Shown one piece after another: positions 7,037-19,006 of a DNA stretch of 39,680 nucleotides. How positions within the stretch are numbered: position 1 is the stretch's first letter; every line of letters begins with the position of its first letter. This DNA comes from an uncultured archaeon (GTDB taxonomy: Archaea > Asgardarchaeota > Thorarchaeia > Thorarchaeales > Thorarchaeaceae). Under the pieces are notes generated by a model. It was not told the DNA's origin. It was given only the letters and a program-made list of their open reading frames with translations, and made no database searches. The position numbers were made by a program, and so were the translations under genes. The stretch lies in NCBI GenBank assembly GCA_964590575.1, contig CAZPWM010000023.1, positions 1-39,680 on the forward strand, written 5' to 3'.

Positions 7037-8077
7037 TCAGTAAATCTCCCTAGAAGATGCACGAAGATAGCTCACAGCTGTGAGTCCGGCGTATACCAAG
7101 AAAGCAAGCCAGATGATTGCTGTAATGAGCAGTAGATTTGTCTTAAAGAACAGCTCGACAACGAGAAAGAGACCTATCACAAAGAGGTTTGAAGCCCCTC
7201 CGATTGTCGTATCATTTCTTACCTTGAGCGCGAATTTCACAATGTACATGATTGCCACTATAGATAACGAAACCCAGTTGATGAAACTCGTGAACAAGAT
7301 TGACTGATTTAAGAATGGAATAACCCCCAATGGCGTTGGGATTGGTGGGAGATACAGTATCAGGAACACAATGAAGAGAATGAACTCTCCTATCCGTATC
7401 CACTTTGTCGGTGTCTTCGTATAGATTTCACCGTAGAGCCCCTTGTCATACTCCTGCGCACCGAAATAGATGAAGTAGATTGGAGCTCCAAAACTGAGTG
7501 AGTTGACAAGACACTGAGCAAAGCCGTACACGACCTGCAACCAGAATGTTTCCCATGTGGCAAGGATGTATTCCCACACATCTATGTAGTTCGGAAGGAA
7601 CTCCAACATGACAAATGTTGGGAGGATGCAAAGGGCAAGAGCCCCTATTATCGCGAGTAACGCGCCAGGTTTTCCCCCTCCGAATTTTCCTAAACCAATT
7701 CTGAAGAACACAGTCCCAGCAACATAGAGGCCGAGGACTATCGCTAAGGGTGGAGTTGTCATTGGAAGTACAAACAACATCAGTACGAAGGCGGCGTTTA
7801 TTCCATAGAACACACGCCATCGAAGTGGAACACTTGAGATGGTGTCATCCATGATGTAAACAGTGTTTGCCAATCTGAAGCGCTGGTAGTAGATGAGACC
7901 AAGCCAGGGTGCGGAGAATACGATTGGTACCGCGATGTAATGGAAGAGCCAGTCAAACATTGGATCCCCAAATGGAGTCATCTGTGGAATGAACAACATC
8001 AGTAGGAAGAAGTAGATGGGTCCAATGAATGCTAGTAGAACAACAGCAATTCGAGTAGGTATCCAATCGGGGCTCAA
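7037..8077 (-). CDS. multi-pass integral membrane protein of unknown function
   Basis: About 9-10 hydrophobic segments. Start moved from 8230 (which overlaps pyrF) to the TTG at 8077, preceded by GGAGAGG. Confidence 0.8.
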   Translation of the reverse strand: MSPDWIPTRIAVVLLAFIGPIYFFLLMLFIPQMTPFGDPMFDWLFHYIAVPIVFSAPWLGLIYYQRFRLANTVYIMDDTISSVPLRWRVFYGINAAFVLMLFVLPMTTPPLAIVLGLYVAGTVFFRIGLGKFGGGKPGALLAIIGALALCILPTFVMLEFLPNYIDVWEYILATWETFWLQVVYGFAQCLVNSLSFGAPIYFIYFGAQEYDKGLYGEIYTKTPTKWIRIGEFILFIVFLILYLPPIPTPLGVIPFLNQSILFTSFINWVSLSIVAIMYIVKFALKVRNDTTIGGASNLFVIGLFLVVELFFKTNLLLITAIIWLAFLVYAGLTAVSYLRASSREIY

Positions 8078-8196
8078 TGTGACCTCTCCACTTTCCTGTG
8101 TGTTAGATACGATATAAGTGTACACGAGATTTATTTGGAAGTATATTGAGGGGTTACCTATTCCATTGGAACATGTGTAAATCCTGTGGAATAGGT

Positions 8197-8988
8197 GTGG
8201 GTCGCGTGTATAAGAGGAAACTTTCAGCATCGAGTTTTGTGAGAAAGAGCAAGTTGATTATCGGACTTGATCTTGTAGCTAACATGGCAGGAAAAGATGG
8301 GCCTGGAGTAACTGTAGAGAAAGAACGACTTGAACGAGAGGCTCTGAAAATTGTTACTACCACAGCTGAACATGCTGTCGCTTTCAAAATCAATCGACAT
8401 CTGATTCTACCTGTCGGTCTTTTCGAAGGAATACCGCGCATTATTGATGCGATTCATGATGCAGGTATAACAGCTATAGCTGACATTAAACTGAATGATA
8501 TTGGAAATACAAACAAGGTCCTTGCCAAGTACTATTTTGATGCAGGTTTTGATGCCCTCATTGTGAACCCACTTGTTGGGATGGAGGGTGGACTGAGTAG
8601 TGTCTTTGAGATGGCTACTCTTCGGAAGCGTGGTATAATCACACTATGCTACATGTCCCATCCTGGAGCGAGGGAAGGATACGGACTATATGTTTCTCCT
8701 GACGGAAAGCAGAAAGCTGAACCATTCTATCATCACTTCGCTCGTATAGCAAGGAAATGGGACACTGATGGGGTAATAGTAGGAGCAACTCATCCTGAGA
8801 AGATTACAGAAGTCAGAGAAATCCTGGGACCAGAGATTCCCATCATAAGCCCTGGAGTTGGAGCTCAGGGTGGTAGTGCACGAACTGCCGTTGACGCCGG
8901 TGCTGACTTTGTCATCGCAGCTCGTTCAATTGTGGAAGCTGCTGACCCTGCAGCCGCAGCTTTGTCTATTGCAGCAGAGATTCGCTGA
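8197..8988 (+). CDS. pyrF: orotidine-5'-phosphate decarboxylase
   Basis: Catalytic DIKLNDIGNT, IIGLD, MSHPG, VGAT, PGVGAQGG, ARSI. Start uncertain (8146, 8173 or 8197). Confidence 0.93.
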   Translation: MGRVYKRKLSASSFVRKSKLIIGLDLVANMAGKDGPGVTVEKERLEREALKIVTTTAEHAVAFKINRHLILPVGLFEGIPRIIDAIHDAGITAIADIKLNDIGNTNKVLAKYYFDAGFDALIVNPLVGMEGGLSSVFEMATLRKRGIITLCYMSHPGAREGYGLYVSPDGKQKAEPFYHHFARIARKWDTDGVIVGATHPEKITEVREILGPEIPIISPGVGAQGGSARTAVDAGADFVIAARSIVEAADPAAAALSIAAEIR

Positions 8989-9180: not shown

Positions 9181-10458
9181 ATGGCAAACACAATAGGTAA
9201 CGGCTATGGCTTTGCTACATGGACTAATTTTATTGAAGAATCTCAGATACGGTCTCTTCTGAAGTATCAAGTCAAGTACTACTTTGCTGGTGGAAAACCT
9301 GGTATCATCCCTACTGATATCTTCGCAGATATCATGGCAGACCTCAGTGTCAAATACAAGGAAGATCCTAAGCTAGCTCTTGAAGATTTCAACTATGGTC
9401 CAACAGGGGGTCAACCCTGGTTCTTGAAGACTTTGGCAAAACGCCTTCATGATGTCCGAGAAATCCCAATCGATTGCGAAAATGACTGGGATTGCGTTTC
9501 CATCACAAATGGATCACAACAGGCACTCTATGCATTGCTTGATACCTTGATTGATCCTGGTGATGTAATAATCACACCTTCACCTGCGTACCTAGGATTT
9601 CTTGTTCCCGCTGTGAAACTTGGCGCGCGTGTGATTACAATTCCAACAGATCTTGACGGAATCATTCCGGATGAGGTTGAGAGTGCTGTAGAGATTTCTA
9701 AGAAGAAGTTTGGCAAGGTTCCAGACATGATCTATGTAGTACCCGATTCAGACAATCCGAAAGGTACAACACTTCCAATGAAGCGACGTCAGGCACTTTT
9801 CGATATTGCTGAGGCTGATGACATCCTTCTTCTTGAAGATTCAGCCTATGCAGAGATTCAGTTCAAGAAGAATCCGAAAGCCATCAAGACGCTTGATAAG
9901 GAAAACAATAGGGTGGCATATCTTGGTACAAGTAGCAAGGAGGCAGCAGTACTCCGAGTTGGATATTCTGTACTTCCACCAACTGTGAAAGAACAAGTTC
10001 TCAAAGATAAGGGGTATCTTGATCTTTGTACTGCAACCTTGGTTCAACGGATTCTTGATGAGTATTATCGCAAGTATATCGATGAGGCAATGCGTGTTGG
10101 AATTCCACAATATGAGGTACGCTGCAAGGCTATGGCAAAGGCGATTGATGACTCATTTCCTGCAGGCGTTCGGACTGACCCCACTGGAGGTTTCTTCATC
10201 TGGTGGCAGAGTGAAGACAAAAAGTTCGACGCTGGCAAGTTCATGGAACGCATAGCAATTCCAAATGAAGTACTCTACGTTCCAGGGACTGCGTTCTATC
10301 CAATAACTGGACACAGACTAACCAAGGATAAGAAAGGTCTCAGAGAGAGTCTTCCAGAGCACAATACAATGCGACTTGGATTCTCCTATGTTCCTCCTGA
10401 AATCATCTCAGAAGGAATTGAACGCCTAGGGAAACTTCTGACAAAGGAACTTGGATAG
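9181..10458 (+). CDS. PLP-dependent aminotransferase class I/II (LysN/ARO8-like)
   Basis: ITNGSQQAL, DNPKG, LEDSAY, Schiff-base Lys in GTSSK..LRVGY, PTGGFF, MRLGFS. Confidence 0.92.
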   Translation: MANTIGNGYGFATWTNFIEESQIRSLLKYQVKYYFAGGKPGIIPTDIFADIMADLSVKYKEDPKLALEDFNYGPTGGQPWFLKTLAKRLHDVREIPIDCENDWDCVSITNGSQQALYALLDTLIDPGDVIITPSPAYLGFLVPAVKLGARVITIPTDLDGIIPDEVESAVEISKKKFGKVPDMIYVVPDSDNPKGTTLPMKRRQALFDIAEADDILLLEDSAYAEIQFKKNPKAIKTLDKENNRVAYLGTSSKEAAVLRVGYSVLPPTVKEQVLKDKGYLDLCTATLVQRILDEYYRKYIDEAMRVGIPQYEVRCKAMAKAIDDSFPAGVRTDPTGGFFIWWQSEDKKFDAGKFMERIAIPNEVLYVPGTAFYPITGHRLTKDKKGLRESLPEHNTMRLGFSYVPPEIISEGIERLGKLLTKELG

Positions 10459-10460
10459 AC

Positions 10461-12176
10461 TCAGATTGAGAAGTTTGCGAACACCGTAGCACCATTCTTC
10501 ATCGGACCGACGTATGCTCTCTCATAGGCTCCAAACAGGTCTGAGAAACCAGAGTTTATTGCCCACTCTATCCAAGCCCATGAAGATTCTTGACCAAGTT
10601 TGTTCTCTGCATATTGACCAAAAGCCCATGACAAATATCGTTCTACGTCTAGTTTCTGGAGTTGGAGTGTTTCAGTAGCCTTTCCTGAAGATTCCCCGAT
10701 TTTACTGCTGAGCTTTTCAAGACTGCCATTCAACGATTTGTGAGTTTCAAGAATCAGCTTTTTCAACTCAACAAGTTGGTCGTTCATTGCATCAAACTCA
10801 TTCTTTCTTCTAGCCTTCGCAATCGTACCCATTATACTGAACATTTCCTTTCGTTGAAGGACCTCAAAGTTCTGCTCTTCTAGACTCTTTGCTAGTTGTT
10901 CATTCCAAGGTGTGTTGAAGTAAACTCTAGGATATTTGATAAATTGTGGGAATGGTATCTCAATTGCTCTCGCGGATGGAATAACCTGAGCATAATATGC
11001 TGTTTCACCAGGACCTCCAATATGCGCCACAGTAGGAATTAAGGTGTCAATCAACGCCTGCCTAGAATCTACACGTGGTGATATTTGGTGAGCAATCTCA
11101 CCGAGATACGGACTGTCAGCAGAAGTTTCGATCTCGATAGATTCTAAACAAGATGGACACCTACCAGTCAAGAGAACTGTAGTTCCCAGGTCCTCATAGT
11201 GAAGTTCTGTTCGGCTCTTGTTGCATTTAGGATTAGTACATTCATAGAAGAAAGGCACATAATCCGGGCCTCTGAGCCCGATTCCAGGGTCATAACCCTT
11301 AGCAAGAATCAAATTCGTCATTTCATCGAAAGTCTTGAGGAACCGTTCTCTGTTTTTTCGTGCAAGTAGAAACTCCATGCCTTCTACGAGAAGCTCGCGG
11401 ATTTTTCTCTCCGATGCTGTCAATAGAGGAATGCCAAGATTGCCTATAACATTGAACAGATACCCCATAATCCTTTGTGCCCACTCTCCGAGGGATTCAG
11501 AATTGAAGAAAGAATGTCTGATTATAGTGAGTGACTGCTCAAGCCGCTCTTCGAATAACAAGCGTGCATGTCGTTCTAAATTCTTAAGCATTGGATGGTA
11601 GCTACTTCTGATATCAGCCTCTACCTGACTAAGCCAATCGCCATCTGGGAGGGGTAGTACACTTACTGGTGAATTTTCAAAACCCTGTGGAACTGGGAGG
11701 CTGATTAGATTGCCACCTTGACCCATTATTGGTGTTCGGATGTTTGTCAGCTCTGATTGTACAGTATCATAGTCTGCTACATAAAAGAAGGGTGTGAGAG
11801 GCACACCGTTCTCAGTAGCAAGGGACGCCACTTGTTTGGCAGTTATTGCCTTGTTTAGGATATATGCAGGACCACCCAGCACGACAGTCTGGTGAGCGGA
11901 TTCCACAGCTCCATGCTCGAGGTTGTCTATACTATCCCTGACCTTAGGTGTCAAGCAACCAAGTTTCTTGTTGGTTTCAGTAAGAACATCCTTGAGAATG
12001 TTTGTTCTCTCAGATATGTGCCACAACGTATCTTTGTACGATTTGAGAAGACTAGGAACTCTGCTAGCAAGTGTATCGAGAGTTAGTGGTGGTATACCAT
12101 ATAGCTTCTCAGCTAGGTCTGTATTCTGTCCATTCCAGATGAAATCTTCATAAATTTCGTAAACACTGGGTTTCAA
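10461..12176 (-). CDS. bshC: bacillithiol biosynthesis cysteine-adding enzyme BshC homolog
   Basis: GGPAYILNKAITA (cf. GGPLY..K), PFFYVADYD, ISPRV, HIGGPGETAYYAQ (cf. GGPGE.AY.AQ), YPR, helical C-terminal region; directly downstream of bshA. Confidence 0.85.
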   Translation of the reverse strand: MKPSVYEIYEDFIWNGQNTDLAEKLYGIPPLTLDTLASRVPSLLKSYKDTLWHISERTNILKDVLTETNKKLGCLTPKVRDSIDNLEHGAVESAHQTVVLGGPAYILNKAITAKQVASLATENGVPLTPFFYVADYDTVQSELTNIRTPIMGQGGNLISLPVPQGFENSPVSVLPLPDGDWLSQVEADIRSSYHPMLKNLERHARLLFEERLEQSLTIIRHSFFNSESLGEWAQRIMGYLFNVIGNLGIPLLTASERKIRELLVEGMEFLLARKNRERFLKTFDEMTNLILAKGYDPGIGLRGPDYVPFFYECTNPKCNKSRTELHYEDLGTTVLLTGRCPSCLESIEIETSADSPYLGEIAHQISPRVDSRQALIDTLIPTVAHIGGPGETAYYAQVIPSARAIEIPFPQFIKYPRVYFNTPWNEQLAKSLEEQNFEVLQRKEMFSIMGTIAKARRKNEFDAMNDQLVELKKLILETHKSLNGSLEKLSSKIGESSGKATETLQLQKLDVERYLSWAFGQYAENKLGQESSWAWIEWAINSGFSDLFGAYERAYVGPMKNGATVFANFSI

Positions 12177-12193
12177 GCCGAGTCACAATCCTC

Positions 12194-13357
12194 CTACTTG
12201 GATACTACATCTTCGAATACTTTCTCGTACATTTTTACAATACGCTCTGCAGAGAACGATTCTTCTACTCTCTTTCTCCCAGCTAGTCCTAGTTTCTTGC
12301 GTTTTGTATCATTCTCAAGCATCTCAATGACAACCTGTGCATACTCCTCTGACTCGAATCCATTGGTGACCATCCCATCCTTCCCTGGACGCACCAGCTC
12401 TGGAATACCTCCCGCTGGTGTGGTCACAACAGGAAGACCGCATGACATTGCTTCGAGTAGTACCAAAGGCATACCTTCCAAAGTGGAATTCATCAGGAAT
12501 AAGTCCACTGAACACATAATCTCCTGCATGTTGCTTTTTACGCCGAGTAGATGCACATTATTGCATAAGTCAAGAGCCTCAATCTTTCTCTCTACTTCAA
12601 TGCGAGTGGGACCATCGCCCGCAATGATCAGTCTGGTTTTTGGGTAGTGGTCGACCACGATTCTCATTATTTCAACGAGTTCAACTACACGCTTCACCTT
12701 GCGGAAATTAGATGCATGAAGGAGGATTCTCTCTTCAGGTTGTAACTCGACCACTTCCTCTGCCTTTCGAAGACCTACACAACCATTCTCAACATAAAGC
12801 CGCACACCATTGAGGTGCGAGAACTTAGATGTGTCTATAAAATTTGGAATAACGTGAATCTCCCGTTCAATCCCGAGTTCCTCATGAGCCTTCTTCATCA
12901 AGTACTCAGAGACAGCTGTGACTGCGTCTGCGTGTTCAACTGTGTATTGCACTACTGGTTTGTAAGCTGGGTCTTGTCCCAAAGTATGAACATCTGATCC
13001 GTGCAGGGTCACGACATAGGGTACGCCTATAATCTCTCTAGCCATGTATGCTGACATAGCATGAGGAATTGCATAGTGTGCATGTACAAGATCAAGTTTG
13101 GAATCCCTTGCGCACTTGATGATCTTAGACGTTAGAGCCATTGTGTATGGTGAACCTGTTTCTTTGAAGAGCGGATAATCAAAACTATCCACAAGGTCTA
13201 CATGAACTCCTTTCGTTTGCTCCCACATAAGAGAAAATGGTCTCTGATATGTGATGAAGTGGATAATGTGGTCTCTGCCTGCTAGCTCTTGACCTAGTCG
13301 TGTTGCTAGGTAGCCGCTACCACCCACTGTCGGATAAAGATTGACTCCAATCCTCAA
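12194..13357 (-). CDS. bshA: N-acetyl-alpha-D-glucosaminyl L-malate synthase (GT4)
   Basis: RIG..YPTVGGSG..AT.LG..LA, HFITY..PF, HAHYAIPHA, TLHGSD, HASNFRKVKR and E...LVLLEAM are BshA-specific. TTG start at 13357 (GTG at 13366 is an alternative). Confidence 0.92.
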   Translation of the reverse strand: MRIGVNLYPTVGGSGYLATRLGQELAGRDHIIHFITYQRPFSLMWEQTKGVHVDLVDSFDYPLFKETGSPYTMALTSKIIKCARDSKLDLVHAHYAIPHAMSAYMAREIIGVPYVVTLHGSDVHTLGQDPAYKPVVQYTVEHADAVTAVSEYLMKKAHEELGIEREIHVIPNFIDTSKFSHLNGVRLYVENGCVGLRKAEEVVELQPEERILLHASNFRKVKRVVELVEIMRIVVDHYPKTRLIIAGDGPTRIEVERKIEALDLCNNVHLLGVKSNMQEIMCSVDLFLMNSTLEGMPLVLLEAMSCGLPVVTTPAGGIPELVRPGKDGMVTNGFESEEYAQVVIEMLENDTKRKKLGLAGRKRVEESFSAERIVKMYEKVFEDVVSK

Positions 13358-13464
13358 GAAATACACCTTCTGTCCCCCTATGATGATTGCACCTTTAAGG
13401 CAAATGGTTTGGACAAGTGACGTGTTGCCAAACCTTGATTAGACTGCATTTGAAAGGTGATTCT

Positions 13465-14133
13465 ATGAGCGAATCGGATACAGGAACAATCCTCATGGTC
13501 GTAGCACATCCAGACGACGAGTCAATAGGTGCTGGAGGTACCATCAGGAAACACGTAGACCTAGGCGTGAAGGTTGACGTTCATTGTATGACTGGGAATG
13601 AAGAGCGAAATGAAGAGTTGAAAGCCGCCTGCGGACTCCTTGGAGTGAGAAGCCTGTACCTGAGCGAGCGTGACGATTTTTCTATTGGTGAAGAGCTCAC
13701 AAACGAGGTTATCGGAGCTATTTTGAAGTCTCGTCCTTCCATCATTATCACGCACCATTCTTCGGATTACAATCGCAACCACCAACAATGCGCAATGGTT
13801 GTGAACCAAGCTGTCGAATGGGCATCTCACACAACGGTCTTTGATGATGCACATAGGGTGGAACGCATCTACAATATGGAAATCAATACAATGATCTCCC
13901 GACCTAATGTTTATGTTGACATAACAGAGTCATATCCGGTCGCCCTAGCTGCTCTCAAGAAACATAAATCGCAGATCAAGAAAGCATGCTCTTTCTATGT
14001 GAATTTGTATGACGCTAGAACACAACTGCGTGGAGTTCAAGCAAATTGCAAAAGAGCAGAAGCCTTCTCAATCACTCTTACAGAACATGCTGGCCCCTTC
14101 TATGAAAGGAATAGTGTAGACAGTCTGATTTAA
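13465..14133 (+). CDS. bshB: PIG-L/LmbE family deacetylase, probable BshB
   Basis: AHPDDESIGAGG, VDIT...K..AL..HKSQ, RAEAF; divergent from bshA; ATG at 13465 follows AGGTGA. Confidence 0.8.
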   Translation: MSESDTGTILMVVAHPDDESIGAGGTIRKHVDLGVKVDVHCMTGNEERNEELKAACGLLGVRSLYLSERDDFSIGEELTNEVIGAILKSRPSIIITHHSSDYNRNHQQCAMVVNQAVEWASHTTVFDDAHRVERIYNMEINTMISRPNVYVDITESYPVALAALKKHKSQIKKACSFYVNLYDARTQLRGVQANCKRAEAFSITLTEHAGPFYERNSVDSLI

Positions 14134-14148
14134 TCGGAGAAATTATTC

Positions 14149-14550
14149 CTAGCCATCAGCTTTTCTTCTACGTGCTGCTAAGAGGGCTTTCAGTTCGCCC
14201 ATCATGCTCATACCGCCGCCCGGAGCTCCTCCTGCTGGCTTTGGAGTAGGGGCTCTTGCCATTGTCGGGATTGGTCCTCCGCCTACAGCTTGAGATGCCG
14301 CTGATGGTTCTCCTGCAGCTGCCGCGGGACCACGAGCTGCCATTGATGACATCCTGCTTTCCAAAGCATCTACTTTACTCTCTAAATCCATGACAGAAAT
14401 CTGAAGATGGGTTATAGCCTCGGTCAGTTTAGTAGTAATTATACTGATAACTTCACCGAGTTGCCGGATTTTCTCTTCGTTTGGATCTTTTAGAGCCCAT
14501 TCGAATTCTTCCATGATTTCTGCTTCAAGCTCTTTCTTCTCATCCGGCAT
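14149..14550 (-). CDS. hypothetical coiled-coil/Pro-Gly-Ala protein with C-terminal Ena/VASP FAB-like motif
   Basis: ATG at 14550 after a GGGGT RBS; heptads in LTEAITHLQISVMDLESKVDALESRMS; tail GGGMSMMGELKALLAARRRKADG. Confidence 0.8.
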   Translation of the reverse strand: MPDEKKELEAEIMEEFEWALKDPNEEKIRQLGEVISIITTKLTEAITHLQISVMDLESKVDALESRMSSMAARGPAAAAGEPSAASQAVGGGPIPTMARAPTPKPAGGAPGGGMSMMGELKALLAARRRKADG

Positions 14551-14628
14551 GATTTTTACCCCGTAGTTCAAAATGTGTTGATGCGTTTTCGCTATAAACA
14601 TTGTCTGCATAAGAACGATTGTCTAAAA

Positions 14629-16005
14629 TTAGGCTGAGGCTATTGTAACCCTCACTACCTCTTCAGTTGACCGGAGGATCTTCTTCACAATATCTTCTGT
14701 GGGGCCCTCACATGTTATTCTAATCACAGGCTCAGTCCCTGAAGGCCTGACAAGCACCCATCCTTGCGTCAGTGTGATTCCCAGGCCATCGATCGTCAGG
14801 ATTTCCTTCACATCACTCAAATTCTTTGGGAGGTCCTCAGTAAGTGCCTTCATTACACTCTGCTTCTTTTCATTTCCACACTCTATCTTAGCCTGGAGTA
14901 GTGGGTACTGTGGAATGGTCTTAATCAAATCTCCAAACGTCTTTCCGGTCGACGCCATCAGTTCAAGGACCTTGCAGGCTGCGAGAAACGGTTCAGGGGC
15001 GAGATGCATGTCAGGGAAGATAAACACTCCACAAGCTTCTCCTCCCATGATTCCTTTTGATTCGACGACTTTGATAGCTACCTGAATGTCTCCCACCGGC
15101 GTTCGCACGGTGTTACCACCAGCCTTCTTGACGGTTTCATCCAGAACAAGTGAACTATCAACAGTCGTAACCACTGTCTGACTCTTGGATGTTTCTAATG
15201 CTTGCTGTGCAAGATGGGCGTTCGTTCGGTCCCCTATAATTATGTCTCCCTGCTCATTTAAAAAAACGACCCTGTCCGCATCCCCATCGTGTGCAATTCC
15301 TAGATCCGCTCCAGTTTTCTTGATCATCTGTATGAGGTCTCCAAGAGAATCTTCATCAGGTTCAGAGCGCCGTCCAGGAAAGTGTCCATCTAATTGACCG
15401 TTTAAGGTCACGACTTGACAATTGAGCTGCTGCATCAAATATGGTGTGTGCACGCAGGCTGCGCCATTTCCAGGATCGACAATCACTCTGAATGATTTTG
15501 ATCTAATGGCTTCAGCATCGCATCTCTCAAGGAGCGCTTCGATATGTTCGTCAACAGCACTCTCAATCCGCGTTTCCTTCCCCAATGCATCCCAGCTAGC
15601 TACTTTGAAATTCTTGGAATTGTAAATCTCCTCCAGCTTTGTTTCTTCCCTGAGTGTAAATCCCATGCTATTCCGGGACCAAAACTTCACTCCTGTATAC
15701 TGAGGTGGATTGTGAGATGCTGTGACCATGAGCCCTGCATCGAAGCCATGCTTCATCGTGATGAATGCAAGGGTCGGAGTTGGAATAATACCTGCACGTA
15801 CTACATTGATCCCTGTTGACAGAACTCCTGCAGTCAAGGCATCTGCCACCATGAGTCCGGTGGTGCGAGCATCTCGCGCAATTATGACTGTTCCTTCACC
15901 CAGGTATGTCCCTAAAGACTTGCCAAGATTGAGCGCCATCTCTAGGTCAAATTCCTCACCATAGACCTTTCTTACGCCTGTTGTTCCAAAGAGTTTTCCA
16001 GTCAT
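14629..16005 (-). CDS. glmM: phosphoglucosamine mutase / phosphohexomutase
   Basis: LFGTTGVR, catalytic TASHNP, metal-binding DGDADR, GGE, VRPSGTEP. The exact sugar-phosphate specificity is uncertain. Confidence 0.85.
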   Translation of the reverse strand: MTGKLFGTTGVRKVYGEEFDLEMALNLGKSLGTYLGEGTVIIARDARTTGLMVADALTAGVLSTGINVVRAGIIPTPTLAFITMKHGFDAGLMVTASHNPPQYTGVKFWSRNSMGFTLREETKLEEIYNSKNFKVASWDALGKETRIESAVDEHIEALLERCDAEAIRSKSFRVIVDPGNGAACVHTPYLMQQLNCQVVTLNGQLDGHFPGRRSEPDEDSLGDLIQMIKKTGADLGIAHDGDADRVVFLNEQGDIIIGDRTNAHLAQQALETSKSQTVVTTVDSSLVLDETVKKAGGNTVRTPVGDIQVAIKVVESKGIMGGEACGVFIFPDMHLAPEPFLAACKVLELMASTGKTFGDLIKTIPQYPLLQAKIECGNEKKQSVMKALTEDLPKNLSDVKEILTIDGLGITLTQGWVLVRPSGTEPVIRITCEGPTEDIVKKILRSTEEVVRVTIASA

Positions 16006-16113
16006 GGGGGTCACTGTTTTACTCGCTGCAGATTCAGAGAAAAAGATACCTACTGATGAAAGTGATTTCGAGCAACAAACCTCTATATTGTGAGTTCCAG
16101 TATATTGAACATA

Positions 16114-16969: not shown

Positions 16970-19006
16970 TCATCTATACTTCCGGAAATAGATTACAACT
17001 GCTATGACAAGAACGGCCCCCGATACTCCCACGATTATCATGGTTGTTAGTATCTCCAAGCCCAGTGTATAGGGTCCAACAACGAATGCTGATACTGCAA
17101 TCTGCATATTATATATTATGGGCTTGACTCCAACATAGCGCGCGAACCCAACATATGCAAGTCCATTGTCACATATATCCAACTTCGGTTCGGATCCCGG
17201 CACGGGCCAGTGGTCATCTCCTATTATCTTGTCCCAGAGAAGATTCCCACTTGAATCGAACTTTACTAGATGATACTCGAATGTGAGCTGCATTCCGTGC
17301 AGTATTACTAGGACGCTTCCATCCGGTGTTACATCAACAGATTTGCACTGGAAAAACCACGAACTACCATCTGATAATGGAATTGTGTAATTTGTGTGCC
17401 ATAATTGGACGCCGTTCGAACTCCACTTGCTGACCATGACTTGCCATTCATCCGCGTGTTCTCCTGACCCCCCACCCTGAGTGGCAGTGTAGATATTTCC
17501 ACTATCATCGAAATTAACAGCCCAGGCGGGCAGGCTAATATTCCAAACAGGCTCACATGTGAGATCACGTTTCTCCACTAAGCTCGAATCCCAACTATAC
17601 ATTCCATCAGGCTGCATCTCTAATTCTGCAATACCGGGTAATAATGCAATTAGATTGTTGGTCTTATTCCACAGCAATGCTCCTGATGAGTCGAACTTGA
17701 GAAACGAGGATTTCCAGAACTCTGGGTCAAATCGTAAATTGTAGTAAACTGACCAAACAAAGACACTCCCGTCAGAAGCGACCGCGATGGCATTTCCTTC
17801 CTCATCATAAATCCCGCCCCACTCAGTCTGCCAGAGAACATCGCCATTTGGTGACCACTTTGTAACTACAAGGTCCTTACTCTGAGTTTCATCGGAGGTC
17901 CTGATATATCCCGTAGTGTAGATATTCCCATCATGAACTGTCATTGCATGACCATACGTCATATTTTCGAGATGCTTCGCCCAGATCAACTCCAACCTCG
18001 AATTGTATTTCAACAGGAACTGGTACGAAAAACGTTTCCCCTCTTCTTCATAGTACTCATAACCTGAAGAAGAATAACAGAGAACGTAGACTGAGCCATC
18101 TGTATCTGTTTCAATATCGCTGAACATCTCTGTGGTGTTCTCAAATTCATCAGGAACATCAGGAAACACATCACGAACCGAATATTCCCACGTACTGTTG
18201 AATAGTGGTAGAAGAACTTGTGACGGGTCTGGGTCTTCTTCCATGTACACCCAGAGTTCCATACTCTTTATTCTGATACTGACTGACCCTTCGTAAAACT
18301 CCCAAGGGTGGCCTCCCGAGAACGATTCAAACTGAAATCTAGGTGCTAGACCAATGGCTGCCTGAACTATATCTTCAGGGTCCTCTTGGAAACCGGTGGC
18401 ATTTTCAATCATCCCTCCCCAAGTCCCATTTAAATCGAAGTAGTTGAAGTTTGGTCTACGTTCTTGATAGATCTCGCTATACAGTGCATCTCTCGATTCA
18501 TATACTTGTATCCAGTTTCCTGATGAATCAATCATCCAAACATAAACTCTAAACATGAGGTTTCCATAATCCTCGGTTGCAAAAGAACCAGTTAGAGTTG
18601 TGCTAAGATTAAACTGGAACACAGCATCTATTGGCATTTCATTTGAAAGCCATTCAAACTCTTGGTAGAAGTAGATGAAATCAAAGCAATCAGGTAGGTT
18701 TTCATCTTCCCCGATTCTAAAGTCAAGAGATGTGTTAGCAACATGGTCCCACGTCAGTTCTATATAGTTGAAATCCTCATCATCGACCGCTTGGTGATAG
18801 CTGGATGAAAACTCATCTGAAGTCCCCTCAATCACTGTTACCGGTTCTGTAGTGAAGTATGGGTCATCGATGAAATTTTCAATCGATACACTTGATGGTA
18901 CACTATTGGAATTGCGTACCAATCCACCAGTTGCAATTTCGCTGACTACGCCAACTTGGCCAATCAGTATGAAGATTACAAGAAGCACCGCTAGATACAT
19001 ACGCAC
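16970..19006 (-). CDS. secreted/surface glycoprotein with beta-propeller (SBBP-like) repeats and C-terminal TM anchor
   Basis: N-terminal hydrophobic signal; repeats K(W/F)(S/D)..G..LW; acidic composition; many N-x-S/T sequons; C-terminal TM followed by RKYR. Confidence 0.85.
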   Translation of the reverse strand: MRMYLAVLLVIFILIGQVGVVSEIATGGLVRNSNSVPSSVSIENFIDDPYFTTEPVTVIEGTSDEFSSSYHQAVDDEDFNYIELTWDHVANTSLDFRIGEDENLPDCFDFIYFYQEFEWLSNEMPIDAVFQFNLSTTLTGSFATEDYGNLMFRVYVWMIDSSGNWIQVYESRDALYSEIYQERRPNFNYFDLNGTWGGMIENATGFQEDPEDIVQAAIGLAPRFQFESFSGGHPWEFYEGSVSIRIKSMELWVYMEEDPDPSQVLLPLFNSTWEYSVRDVFPDVPDEFENTTEMFSDIETDTDGSVYVLCYSSSGYEYYEEEGKRFSYQFLLKYNSRLELIWAKHLENMTYGHAMTVHDGNIYTTGYIRTSDETQSKDLVVTKWSPNGDVLWQTEWGGIYDEEGNAIAVASDGSVFVWSVYYNLRFDPEFWKSSFLKFDSSGALLWNKTNNLIALLPGIAELEMQPDGMYSWDSSLVEKRDLTCEPVWNISLPAWAVNFDDSGNIYTATQGGGSGEHADEWQVMVSKWSSNGVQLWHTNYTIPLSDGSSWFFQCKSVDVTPDGSVLVILHGMQLTFEYHLVKFDSSGNLLWDKIIGDDHWPVPGSEPKLDICDNGLAYVGFARYVGVKPIIYNMQIAVSAFVVGPYTLGLEILTTMIIVGVSGAVLVIAVVIYFRKYR

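Follow-up and report, generated by a model that had tools for sequence, protein, structure and literature searches.

A cluster of three genes in the genome of an uncultured archaeon of the family Thorarchaeaceae most probably encodes a native, archaeal-type pathway for bacillithiol (BSH) or a very close analogue of it, a reading to which we assign a probability of about 0.7; within that reading, the chances that the product is BSH itself are roughly even. The cluster lies in a stretch of 39,680 nucleotides (the window; contig CAZPWM010000023.1 of assembly GCA_964590575.1), which corresponds to contig C23 in a genome of 194 contigs and 3.40 Mb (G000), with an estimated completeness of 91.45%. 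Its members are bshA, encoding a glycosyltransferase family 4 (GT4) homologue of N-acetylglucosaminyl-L-malate synthase (12194..13366, minus strand; 390 aa as the longest open reading frame, ORF), an archaeal-type bshC-like gene for a putative cysteine-adding enzyme (10461..12176, minus strand; 571 aa, TTG start), and a divergent gene for a BshB-like zinc deacetylase of the PIG-L/LmbE family (13417..14133, plus strand; 238 aa as the longest ORF). What is observed is that the proteins belong to these families, and the BshC-like one to the BshC fold, that the motifs of the catalytic core are conserved, and that the three genes cluster in two archaeal phyla. An original prediction, made from the letters of the DNA alone, had read these ORFs as BshA, BshC and PIG-L/BshB proteins clustered in a probable Asgard organism, and family tests, fold tests and synteny bear this out, as do the nearest named homologues, which are from Thorarchaeota (56-88% identity).

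BshA is recognised at the level of an equivalog. It scored 377.8 bits on the NCBIfam model TIGR03999 (cut-off 273.7 bits, E 5e-113), with the next-best NCBIfam model at 146.7 bits, the MshA model at 63.1 bits against a cut-off of 462.5, and models of lipid-linked N-acetylglucosamine (GlcNAc) transferases at 75 bits or less; grouping with MshA or with generic GT4s, the outcome on which the original prediction would have fallen, was thus not seen. The structures matched are those of BshA from B. anthracis and B. subtilis (2JJM/3MBO at 254 bits and 5D00 at 246 bits), and the best non-BshA GT4 reached 77 bits. The protein retains 75 of the 93 columns that are near-invariant across 30 bacterial-type BshA rows, including the motifs GGSG, HxHYAIPH, TxHGxD and SNFRxVKR, and the BshA-specific motifs are intact in both domains; the forms YPTVGGSG, HAHYAIPHA and SNFRKVKR, quoted earlier, all occur in its translation. 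A tree obtained by quick search, whose bacterial side held rows of the Fibrobacteres-Chlorobi-Bacteroidetes (FCB) group only, without Firmicutes or Deinococcus, places it with Bathyarchaeota and the Asgard family f12 (SH-aLRT, the Shimodaira-Hasegawa-like approximate likelihood ratio test, 99). By homology, UDP-GlcNAc and L-malate would be its substrates.

The BshC-like protein passes the family model PF10079 (71.6 bits, cut-off 27) and gives a weak match to B. subtilis BshC (4WBD) when the PDB is searched by sequence (E 2e-6). Its AlphaFold2 model, built from 32 archaeal-branch sequences, has a mean predicted local distance difference test score of 94.4 and a predicted template modelling (TM) score of 0.93, and the top fold match of that model in the PDB is again 4WBD (E 6e-22, TM scores 0.68 and 0.71, 17% identity), followed by a class I lysyl-tRNA synthetase (E 9e-8) and then by weak hits to class I aminoacyl-tRNA synthetases (aaRS). 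Profile alignment with hhalign of the archaeal branch against 40 canonical BshC sequences covered 486 columns at a probability of 100% and E 5e-42, and in it the core motifs align: GxQxxxxGGPxxxxxK, an acidic motif, SPxVxxR and GPGExxYxAQ. In the window's protein two of these read GGPAYILNK and GGPGETAYYAQ, as had been noted before. The modelled chain comprises a Rossmann core of the class-I aaRS type, a Cys-rich segment that is putatively a zinc ribbon, and a C-terminal helical domain. As far as the model and the profile alignment can tell, the protein is a true structural homologue of BshC that stands on a separate archaeal branch, and it would be expected to take cysteine as a substrate.

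The separateness of this branch is evident from several directions. When 1.84 billion representative sequences were searched with phmmer, 976 hits fell at E ≤1e-3, of which 48 at E ≤1e-30; full-length hits between E 1e-103 and about 1e-29 are about 25-37% identical to the query, and canonical BshC proteins of about 540 aa enter the list only near E 1e-13. Half of the ten archaeal-branch representatives looked up carry names, all five of them archaeal (Bathyarchaeota, Ranarchaeia, Promethearchaeota, Hodarchaeales/Thorarchaeota and Odinarchaeota), and three of the ten canonical representatives do, all of them Acidobacteriota BshC. In a tree of 51 rows (quick search under LG+G4 with no mixture model; restricted to rows of at least 480 aligned residues, which removed all f12 loci), a single long branch of about 1.95 changes per column, with an SH-aLRT of 100, parts 32 archaeal-type from 19 canonical rows. 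The archaeal branch also has a Cys-rich segment in its beta-hairpin region, to which the window's protein contributes C313, C318, C340 and C343. At least four cysteines are found there in 24 of the 32 archaeal-branch sequences, three in seven and two in one, with C313 and C340 invariant, and a C-x(1-4)-C motif is absent from the whole length of 39 of 40 canonical BshC sequences. This ribbon may bind zinc.

The deacetylase passes PF02585 (70.5 bits, cut-off 28.2), and among PDB entries it matches 2IXD best (E 2.9e-15), which we take to be B. cereus BshB. H31, D33, D34 and H122 align with H12, D14, D15 and H113 of that structure, and the zinc-ligand triad (H31, D34 and H122) and the general base (D33) are therefore kept; the numbering of the zinc ligands of bacterial BshB is that given in PMC5790435.

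The strongest evidence that the three genes work together is that the trio is conserved through rearrangements across two phyla. With an alignment of eight archaeal BshC-like sequences we found 80 loci in GTDB genomes, 63 of Thor type and 17 of Bathyarchaeota type. Directly upstream of the bshC-like gene and on the same strand, bshA is present in 58 of the 63 Thor-type loci, and a divergent PIG-L gene is present in 51; the misses lie at contig ends, apart from one rearranged locus described below. The order kept across the Thor family is mutase, 153-aa ORF and PIG-L gene, then bshA and the bshC-like gene, then an aminotransferase. At Bathyarchaeota-type loci the PIG-L and bshC-like genes are co-directional and bshA is convergent, with bshA and the PIG-L gene each found at 14 of the 17. 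All three genes stand together in the Asgard families f12, f14, f18 and f26, and family f5 has the bshA and bshC-like pair, so that the trio stays together despite rearrangement and despite identities of 30-46%. The gene bshC was itself first identified through its co-occurrence or co-localisation with bshA.

Of the 76 genomes of the window's own family, 73 have an orthologue of the BshC-like protein, and 72 one of BshA (E ≤1e-30), in the same neighbourhood; complete or near-complete chromosomes (L092) are among them, and Thorarchaeota form one well-supported group in both the BshA and the BshC-like tree (99). Across 301 Asgard genomes, BshA is above its cut-off in 134 (families f1, f5, f12, f14, f18, f25, f26 and f27), and an archaeal-type BshC-like protein (E ≤1e-10) is found in 164. 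By family the latter occurs in 73/76 genomes of f1, 27/28 of f5, 17/19 of f12, 11/11 of f14, 19/21 of f22, 4/7 of f24, 2/2 of f29, 5/68 of f9 and 0/11 of f27. The genomes so counted in f22, f24 and f29, and the few in f9, carry the bshC-like gene without a BshA over the cut-off; since a true BshA is lacking in the first three of these families, the enzyme family would work with other partners there.

Three loci stand apart from this pattern. On a near-complete Thorarchaeota chromosome (L108; CP070658.1, G242:C1:356624-358015) the match to the BshC-like protein begins at residue 107 within an open frame of 1240 aa, and the 5 kb upstream yielded neither bshA nor a PIG-L gene; this locus may be rearranged or fused. 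Two short contigs with bacterial labels, L124 (2.3 kb, Desulfaltia) and L131 (8 kb, Krumholzibacteriaceae), carry a Bathyarchaeota-type cluster with identities as in the Bathyarchaeota loci, and are probably mis-binned archaeal contigs.

Elsewhere in the window's genome, five ORFs are over the Pfam cut-off for DinB_2 (G000:C105:7215-7574, C6:38790-39158, C3:3765-4091, C19:30117-30485 and C133:1171-1527), and there are none in four archaeal control genomes. The DinB_2 superfamily includes the bacterial BSH- and mycothiol-dependent S-transferases, and these ORFs give circumstantial support to a BSH-type thiol, although no named BSH or mycothiol transferase was recognised among the three of the five that were scanned against NCBIfam (best 16.7 bits against 170). 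A flavoprotein of the CoADR/Nox family (C5:47056-48366) scored 340 bits against a cut-off of 578.8 and is only a candidate for a disulfide reductase. No convincing gamma-Glu-Cys ligase was found in the genome, where GCS2 gave only a 27-bit fragment within a frame of 1155 aa.

Part of the stretch is present in twenty public runs, of which two are RNA libraries, from two studies (X19 and X20). At 95% identity or above, contigs from both lie on bshA and the 5' end of the bshC-like gene (three from X19 and one from X20), which is weak support given that DNA carry-over is possible, and one X19 contig of 255 nt spans the junction between the two genes (12020-12273), a weak hint that they are co-transcribed. 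No contig from either library covers the deacetylase, mutase or aminotransferase genes, which, as these are contigs only, has no bearing on the expression of those genes.

In the pathway that we propose, BshA would transfer GlcNAc from UDP-GlcNAc onto L-malate, the divergently transcribed PIG-L zinc deacetylase would take off the acetyl group to leave glucosamine (GlcN)-malate, and the BshC-like enzyme, translated from the transcript of bshA, would add cysteine onto the free amine. The resulting thiol would probably serve in the detoxification of electrophiles and metals and in thiol buffering, through DinB-type transferases, and could be recycled through a reductase unrelated to Bdr. Both the order of these steps and the physiological role are what we infer from the gene set.

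A number of observations weigh against a BSH-type pathway, beginning with the equivalog models. The only NCBIfam match of the BshC-like protein, to TIGR03998, reached 77.8 bits (E 8e-22) against a cut-off of 265.8, and the best NCBIfam match of the deacetylase, to the BshB1 model TIGR04001, reached 81.6 bits (E 7e-23) against 182.5; the deacetylase also falls short of the BshB2 (55.3 against 195.25 bits) and MshB models (30.8 against 224.35). Of the three TIGRFAM scores, therefore, that of BshA alone is above its threshold. The original prediction had called the pathway complete, and this holds at the level of families; two of the enzymes lie below their equivalog cut-offs, with altered motifs. 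These low scores reflect real divergence rather than an archaeal bias of the models, because a canonical operon from another Asgard family passes all three: the bshC-bshB1-bshA operon of f27 (Heimdallarchaeota in NCBI names; L049:3702-7104 in genome G232, and also L013-L021 and L050) scores 386.5 against 265.8 bits for BshC, 222.5 against 182.5 for BshB1 and 423.8 against 273.7 for BshA.

Individual residues point the same way. Near the donor-binding EX7E motif, the window's BshA clade has E[GS][MA]P in place of ESFG (EGMP in the window); the G300P change is fixed (20 of 20 rows), as is E23R (20 of 20). The complete H-x-[DE]-H motif is missing from the window's deacetylase, which reads Y-N-R-N-H, and among 97 aligned deacetylase orthologues the first His of HxxH is Asn in all 63 from the Thor family; it is kept in f12 (9/9), the Bathyarchaeota type (13/13), f26 (2/2), f14 (1/1) and f27 (9/9). 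That His is a proposed catalytic residue of MshB and BshB. The genome has two more PIG-L paralogues (L011, G000:C77:568-1179, and L012, G000:C115:33-362), of which the first retains a complete H-Q-D-H motif and, on this evidence, could back up the Asn variant in the cluster. The specific recycling partners of BSH were also sought: no Bdr/YpdA was found over the cut-off (TIGR04018, best 80.5 against 339.9 bits), and there was no match to TIGR04019 or PF06491 for BrxA/B and BrxC, so that the suggestion that the organism uses BSH as its redox buffer gains no support from recycling genes in a genome of this completeness. Finally, according to PMC5790435, what BshC does has never been reconstituted in vitro, even for the canonical enzyme.

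Because all three enzymes have drifted from their bacterial forms, the cluster could conceivably make a related, chemically distinct cysteinyl-aminosugar thiol, with an aglycone other than malate or with a modified sugar or amino acid. The two failed equivalog cut-offs would fit such a product, as would the long, fully supported branch of the BshC-like protein (SH-aLRT 100) with its Cys-rich ribbon, the substitutions of the BshA clade beside EX7E and after the GGSG loop, the altered HxxH of the Thorarchaeota deacetylase, and the families f22, f24 and f29, where the bshC-like gene occurs in genomes that lack a true BshA. We nevertheless hold it to be unlikely, if a serious contender, in view of the clear equivalog match and the intact motifs of BshA in both domains, the conserved catalytic core of BshC, and the finding that the cluster has no additional tailoring gene, for example one for a methyltransferase or an acyltransferase, that is kept from phylum to phylum. 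More speculatively, the archaeal branch may represent an older or independently specialised system making an undescribed cysteinyl-aminosugar thiol, with a Cys-rich, zinc-ribbon BshC-like enzyme whose cysteine donor or partner differs from that of bacterial BshC; we offer this as a tentative idea of low probability.

A product that is no thiol at all, such as a GlcN-lipid or glycosylphosphatidylinositol-like anchor or an envelope or compatible-solute glycoside, with the BshC-like enzyme ligating something other than cysteine, seems to us very improbable. Pairs of GT4 and PIG-L proteins also occur in GlcN-inositol-lipid pathways, products of this kind typically need both enzymes, and in Thorarchaeota a gene for a GlmM-like mutase is kept in the neighbourhood of the cluster; the failure to find BSH-specific redoxins or a reductase, and the fact that the BshC reaction and its donor are not established even in bacteria (PMC5790435), lean in the same direction. 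The GT4, however, is over the BshA cut-off and scores poorly on the lipid-linked GlcNAc transferase models, no membrane segment is evident by inspection in any of the three translations, and the three-gene association is identical to that of the bacterial BSH set. We rejected the notion of a bacterial contaminant, or of horizontal acquisition of very recent date, on a mis-binned contig; it has next to nothing in its favour beyond the overwhelmingly bacterial distribution of BSH genes and the bacterial labels on two of the 80 related GTDB loci (L124 and L131). It is contradicted by family-wide synteny that extends to near-complete chromosomes, by the grouping of Thorarchaeota in both trees, by flanking genes conserved alongside the cluster, and by a normal GC content (0.443-0.449 in the cluster region, within the range of 0.425-0.476 for the whole window). 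An archaeal-type BSH pathway accordingly remains the reading that we prefer.

The cluster uses the same three protein families as the bacterial BSH pathway of B. subtilis, B. anthracis and Staphylococcus aureus (structures 5D00, 2JJM/3MBO, 2IXD, 6P2T and 4WBD), which it resembles in its equivalog-level BshA, in the fold and core motifs of its BshC-like protein and in the zinc triad of its BshB-like one. It is unlike that pathway in having a BshC-like protein about 17% identical to canonical BshC, on a branch of its own and with a Cys-rich ribbon; a deacetylase below the cut-off in which, as throughout Thorarchaeota, Asn replaces the first His of HxxH; bshA and bshC co-directional with bshB divergent; and no Bdr or Brx partners found. 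The window's genes are clustered, as are bshB1 and bshA in Bacillus (PMC5790435). The mycothiol pathway of Actinomycetota (MshA, MshB and MshC) follows the same logic, with a GT4 and then a PIG-L deacetylase preceding a class-I-aaRS-like cysteine ligase; the window's putative ligase differs in having the BshC fold; it is no paralogue of cysteinyl-tRNA synthetase, structures of which were weak fold hits. Closer at hand, the f27 operon belongs to the same phylum and has the same presumed product as the window's set, which is of the archaeal type. The BshA of f27 groups with bacteria of the FCB group (SH-aLRT 99) and its BshC with canonical bacterial representatives, and the f27 set looks like a separate, bacterial-type acquisition.

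The gene content described here is already known, from a 2020 review and from NCBI product names, the window contributing one further member, and the original prediction was right to suspect that homologues might have been noted before. In PMC7278568, 39 archaeal hits each are given for BshA and BshC in InterPro, mostly from Asgard, and close homologues are named 'bacillithiol biosynthesis BshC [Candidatus Thorarchaeota archaeon]' at NCBI. The variant features seen in two of the enzymes are what is new. The archaeal type is cleanly distinguishable from the canonical one, both exist within the Asgard phylum, and the active-site motif of the deacetylase has changed across the whole Thorarchaeota lineage. 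We found no published description of the archaeal BshC branch, of its Cys-rich ribbon or of the Thorarchaeota deacetylase motif in the open-access literature (main texts, without supplements). A RefSeq-based study of 2025 (PMC12719100) states that no archaea have a complete BSH pathway, with which the canonical operon of f27 contrasts; a RefSeq search would have missed these metagenome-assembled genomes.

The conserved cluster provides a concrete and testable candidate thiol for Asgard archaea and Bathyarchaeota, which are abundant in sediments and, in the case of Asgard, are the closest known prokaryotic relatives of eukaryotes. To our knowledge, bacillithiol has so far been measured only in bacteria, and we know of no measurement of a principal low-molecular-weight thiol for either of these archaeal groups. 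The archaeal BshC-like branch is also a fresh substrate for solving the BshC reaction; on the more speculative reading of an independently specialised system, these enzymes could finally permit that reaction to be elucidated in vitro, because they are compact, fold confidently and are widely conserved.

The architecture of the locus itself agrees with the earlier description, in that the three ORFs, the motifs quoted and the 17-bp gap are all present in the ORF list and the sequence. That gap (12177..12193, minus strand), which separates the stop of bshA from the TTG at which the bshC-like gene starts, contains a GGAGGA Shine-Dalgarno-like box. Translation of bshA likely begins with the TTG at 13357, the fourth residue of the ORF as listed and the one that aligns with the initiator Met in 29 of the 30 bacterial-type BshA rows, and the likely start of the deacetylase gene is the ATG at 13465, with an AGGTGA box 5 nt upstream. 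With these starts the divergent intergenic region (13358..13464, as read from the sequence), presumed to be a shared promoter region, is exactly the 107 bp that the original prediction had given as approximate; with the longest ORFs it is 50 bp.

Beyond the deacetylase gene lies an ORF for a 153-aa protein (14149..14610, minus strand), with no Pfam match, whose N-terminal half is helical and is followed by an Ala/Pro/Gly-rich tail with a basic end. By tblastn it has the same position in Thor-type loci, kept between the mutase and deacetylase genes across the Thor family and in Thorarchaeota only, and its membership of the pathway is doubtful. The adjoining gene (14629..16014, minus strand) encodes a GlmM-like protein of the phosphoglucomutase/phosphomannomutase family that matches all four PGM_PMM Pfam domains. 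Its neighbourhood is likewise kept, by synteny, in Thorarchaeota only, and it may supply hexosamine-1-phosphate for UDP-GlcNAc, which would be its link to the pathway. On the other side, a class I/II aminotransferase gene (9181..10458, plus strand; PF00155, 67 bits) is convergent with the bshC-like gene, with 2 bp between the stops; it has the same position in Thor-type loci (70-89% identity), is absent from Bathyarchaeota-type loci and so is a Thorarchaeota feature, and probably lies outside the pathway. Farther out, and both without a Pfam match, the window encodes a 397-aa multi-pass membrane protein (7037-8230, minus strand) and a 678-aa protein (16970-19006, minus strand) with hydrophobic segments at its N- and C-terminal ends.

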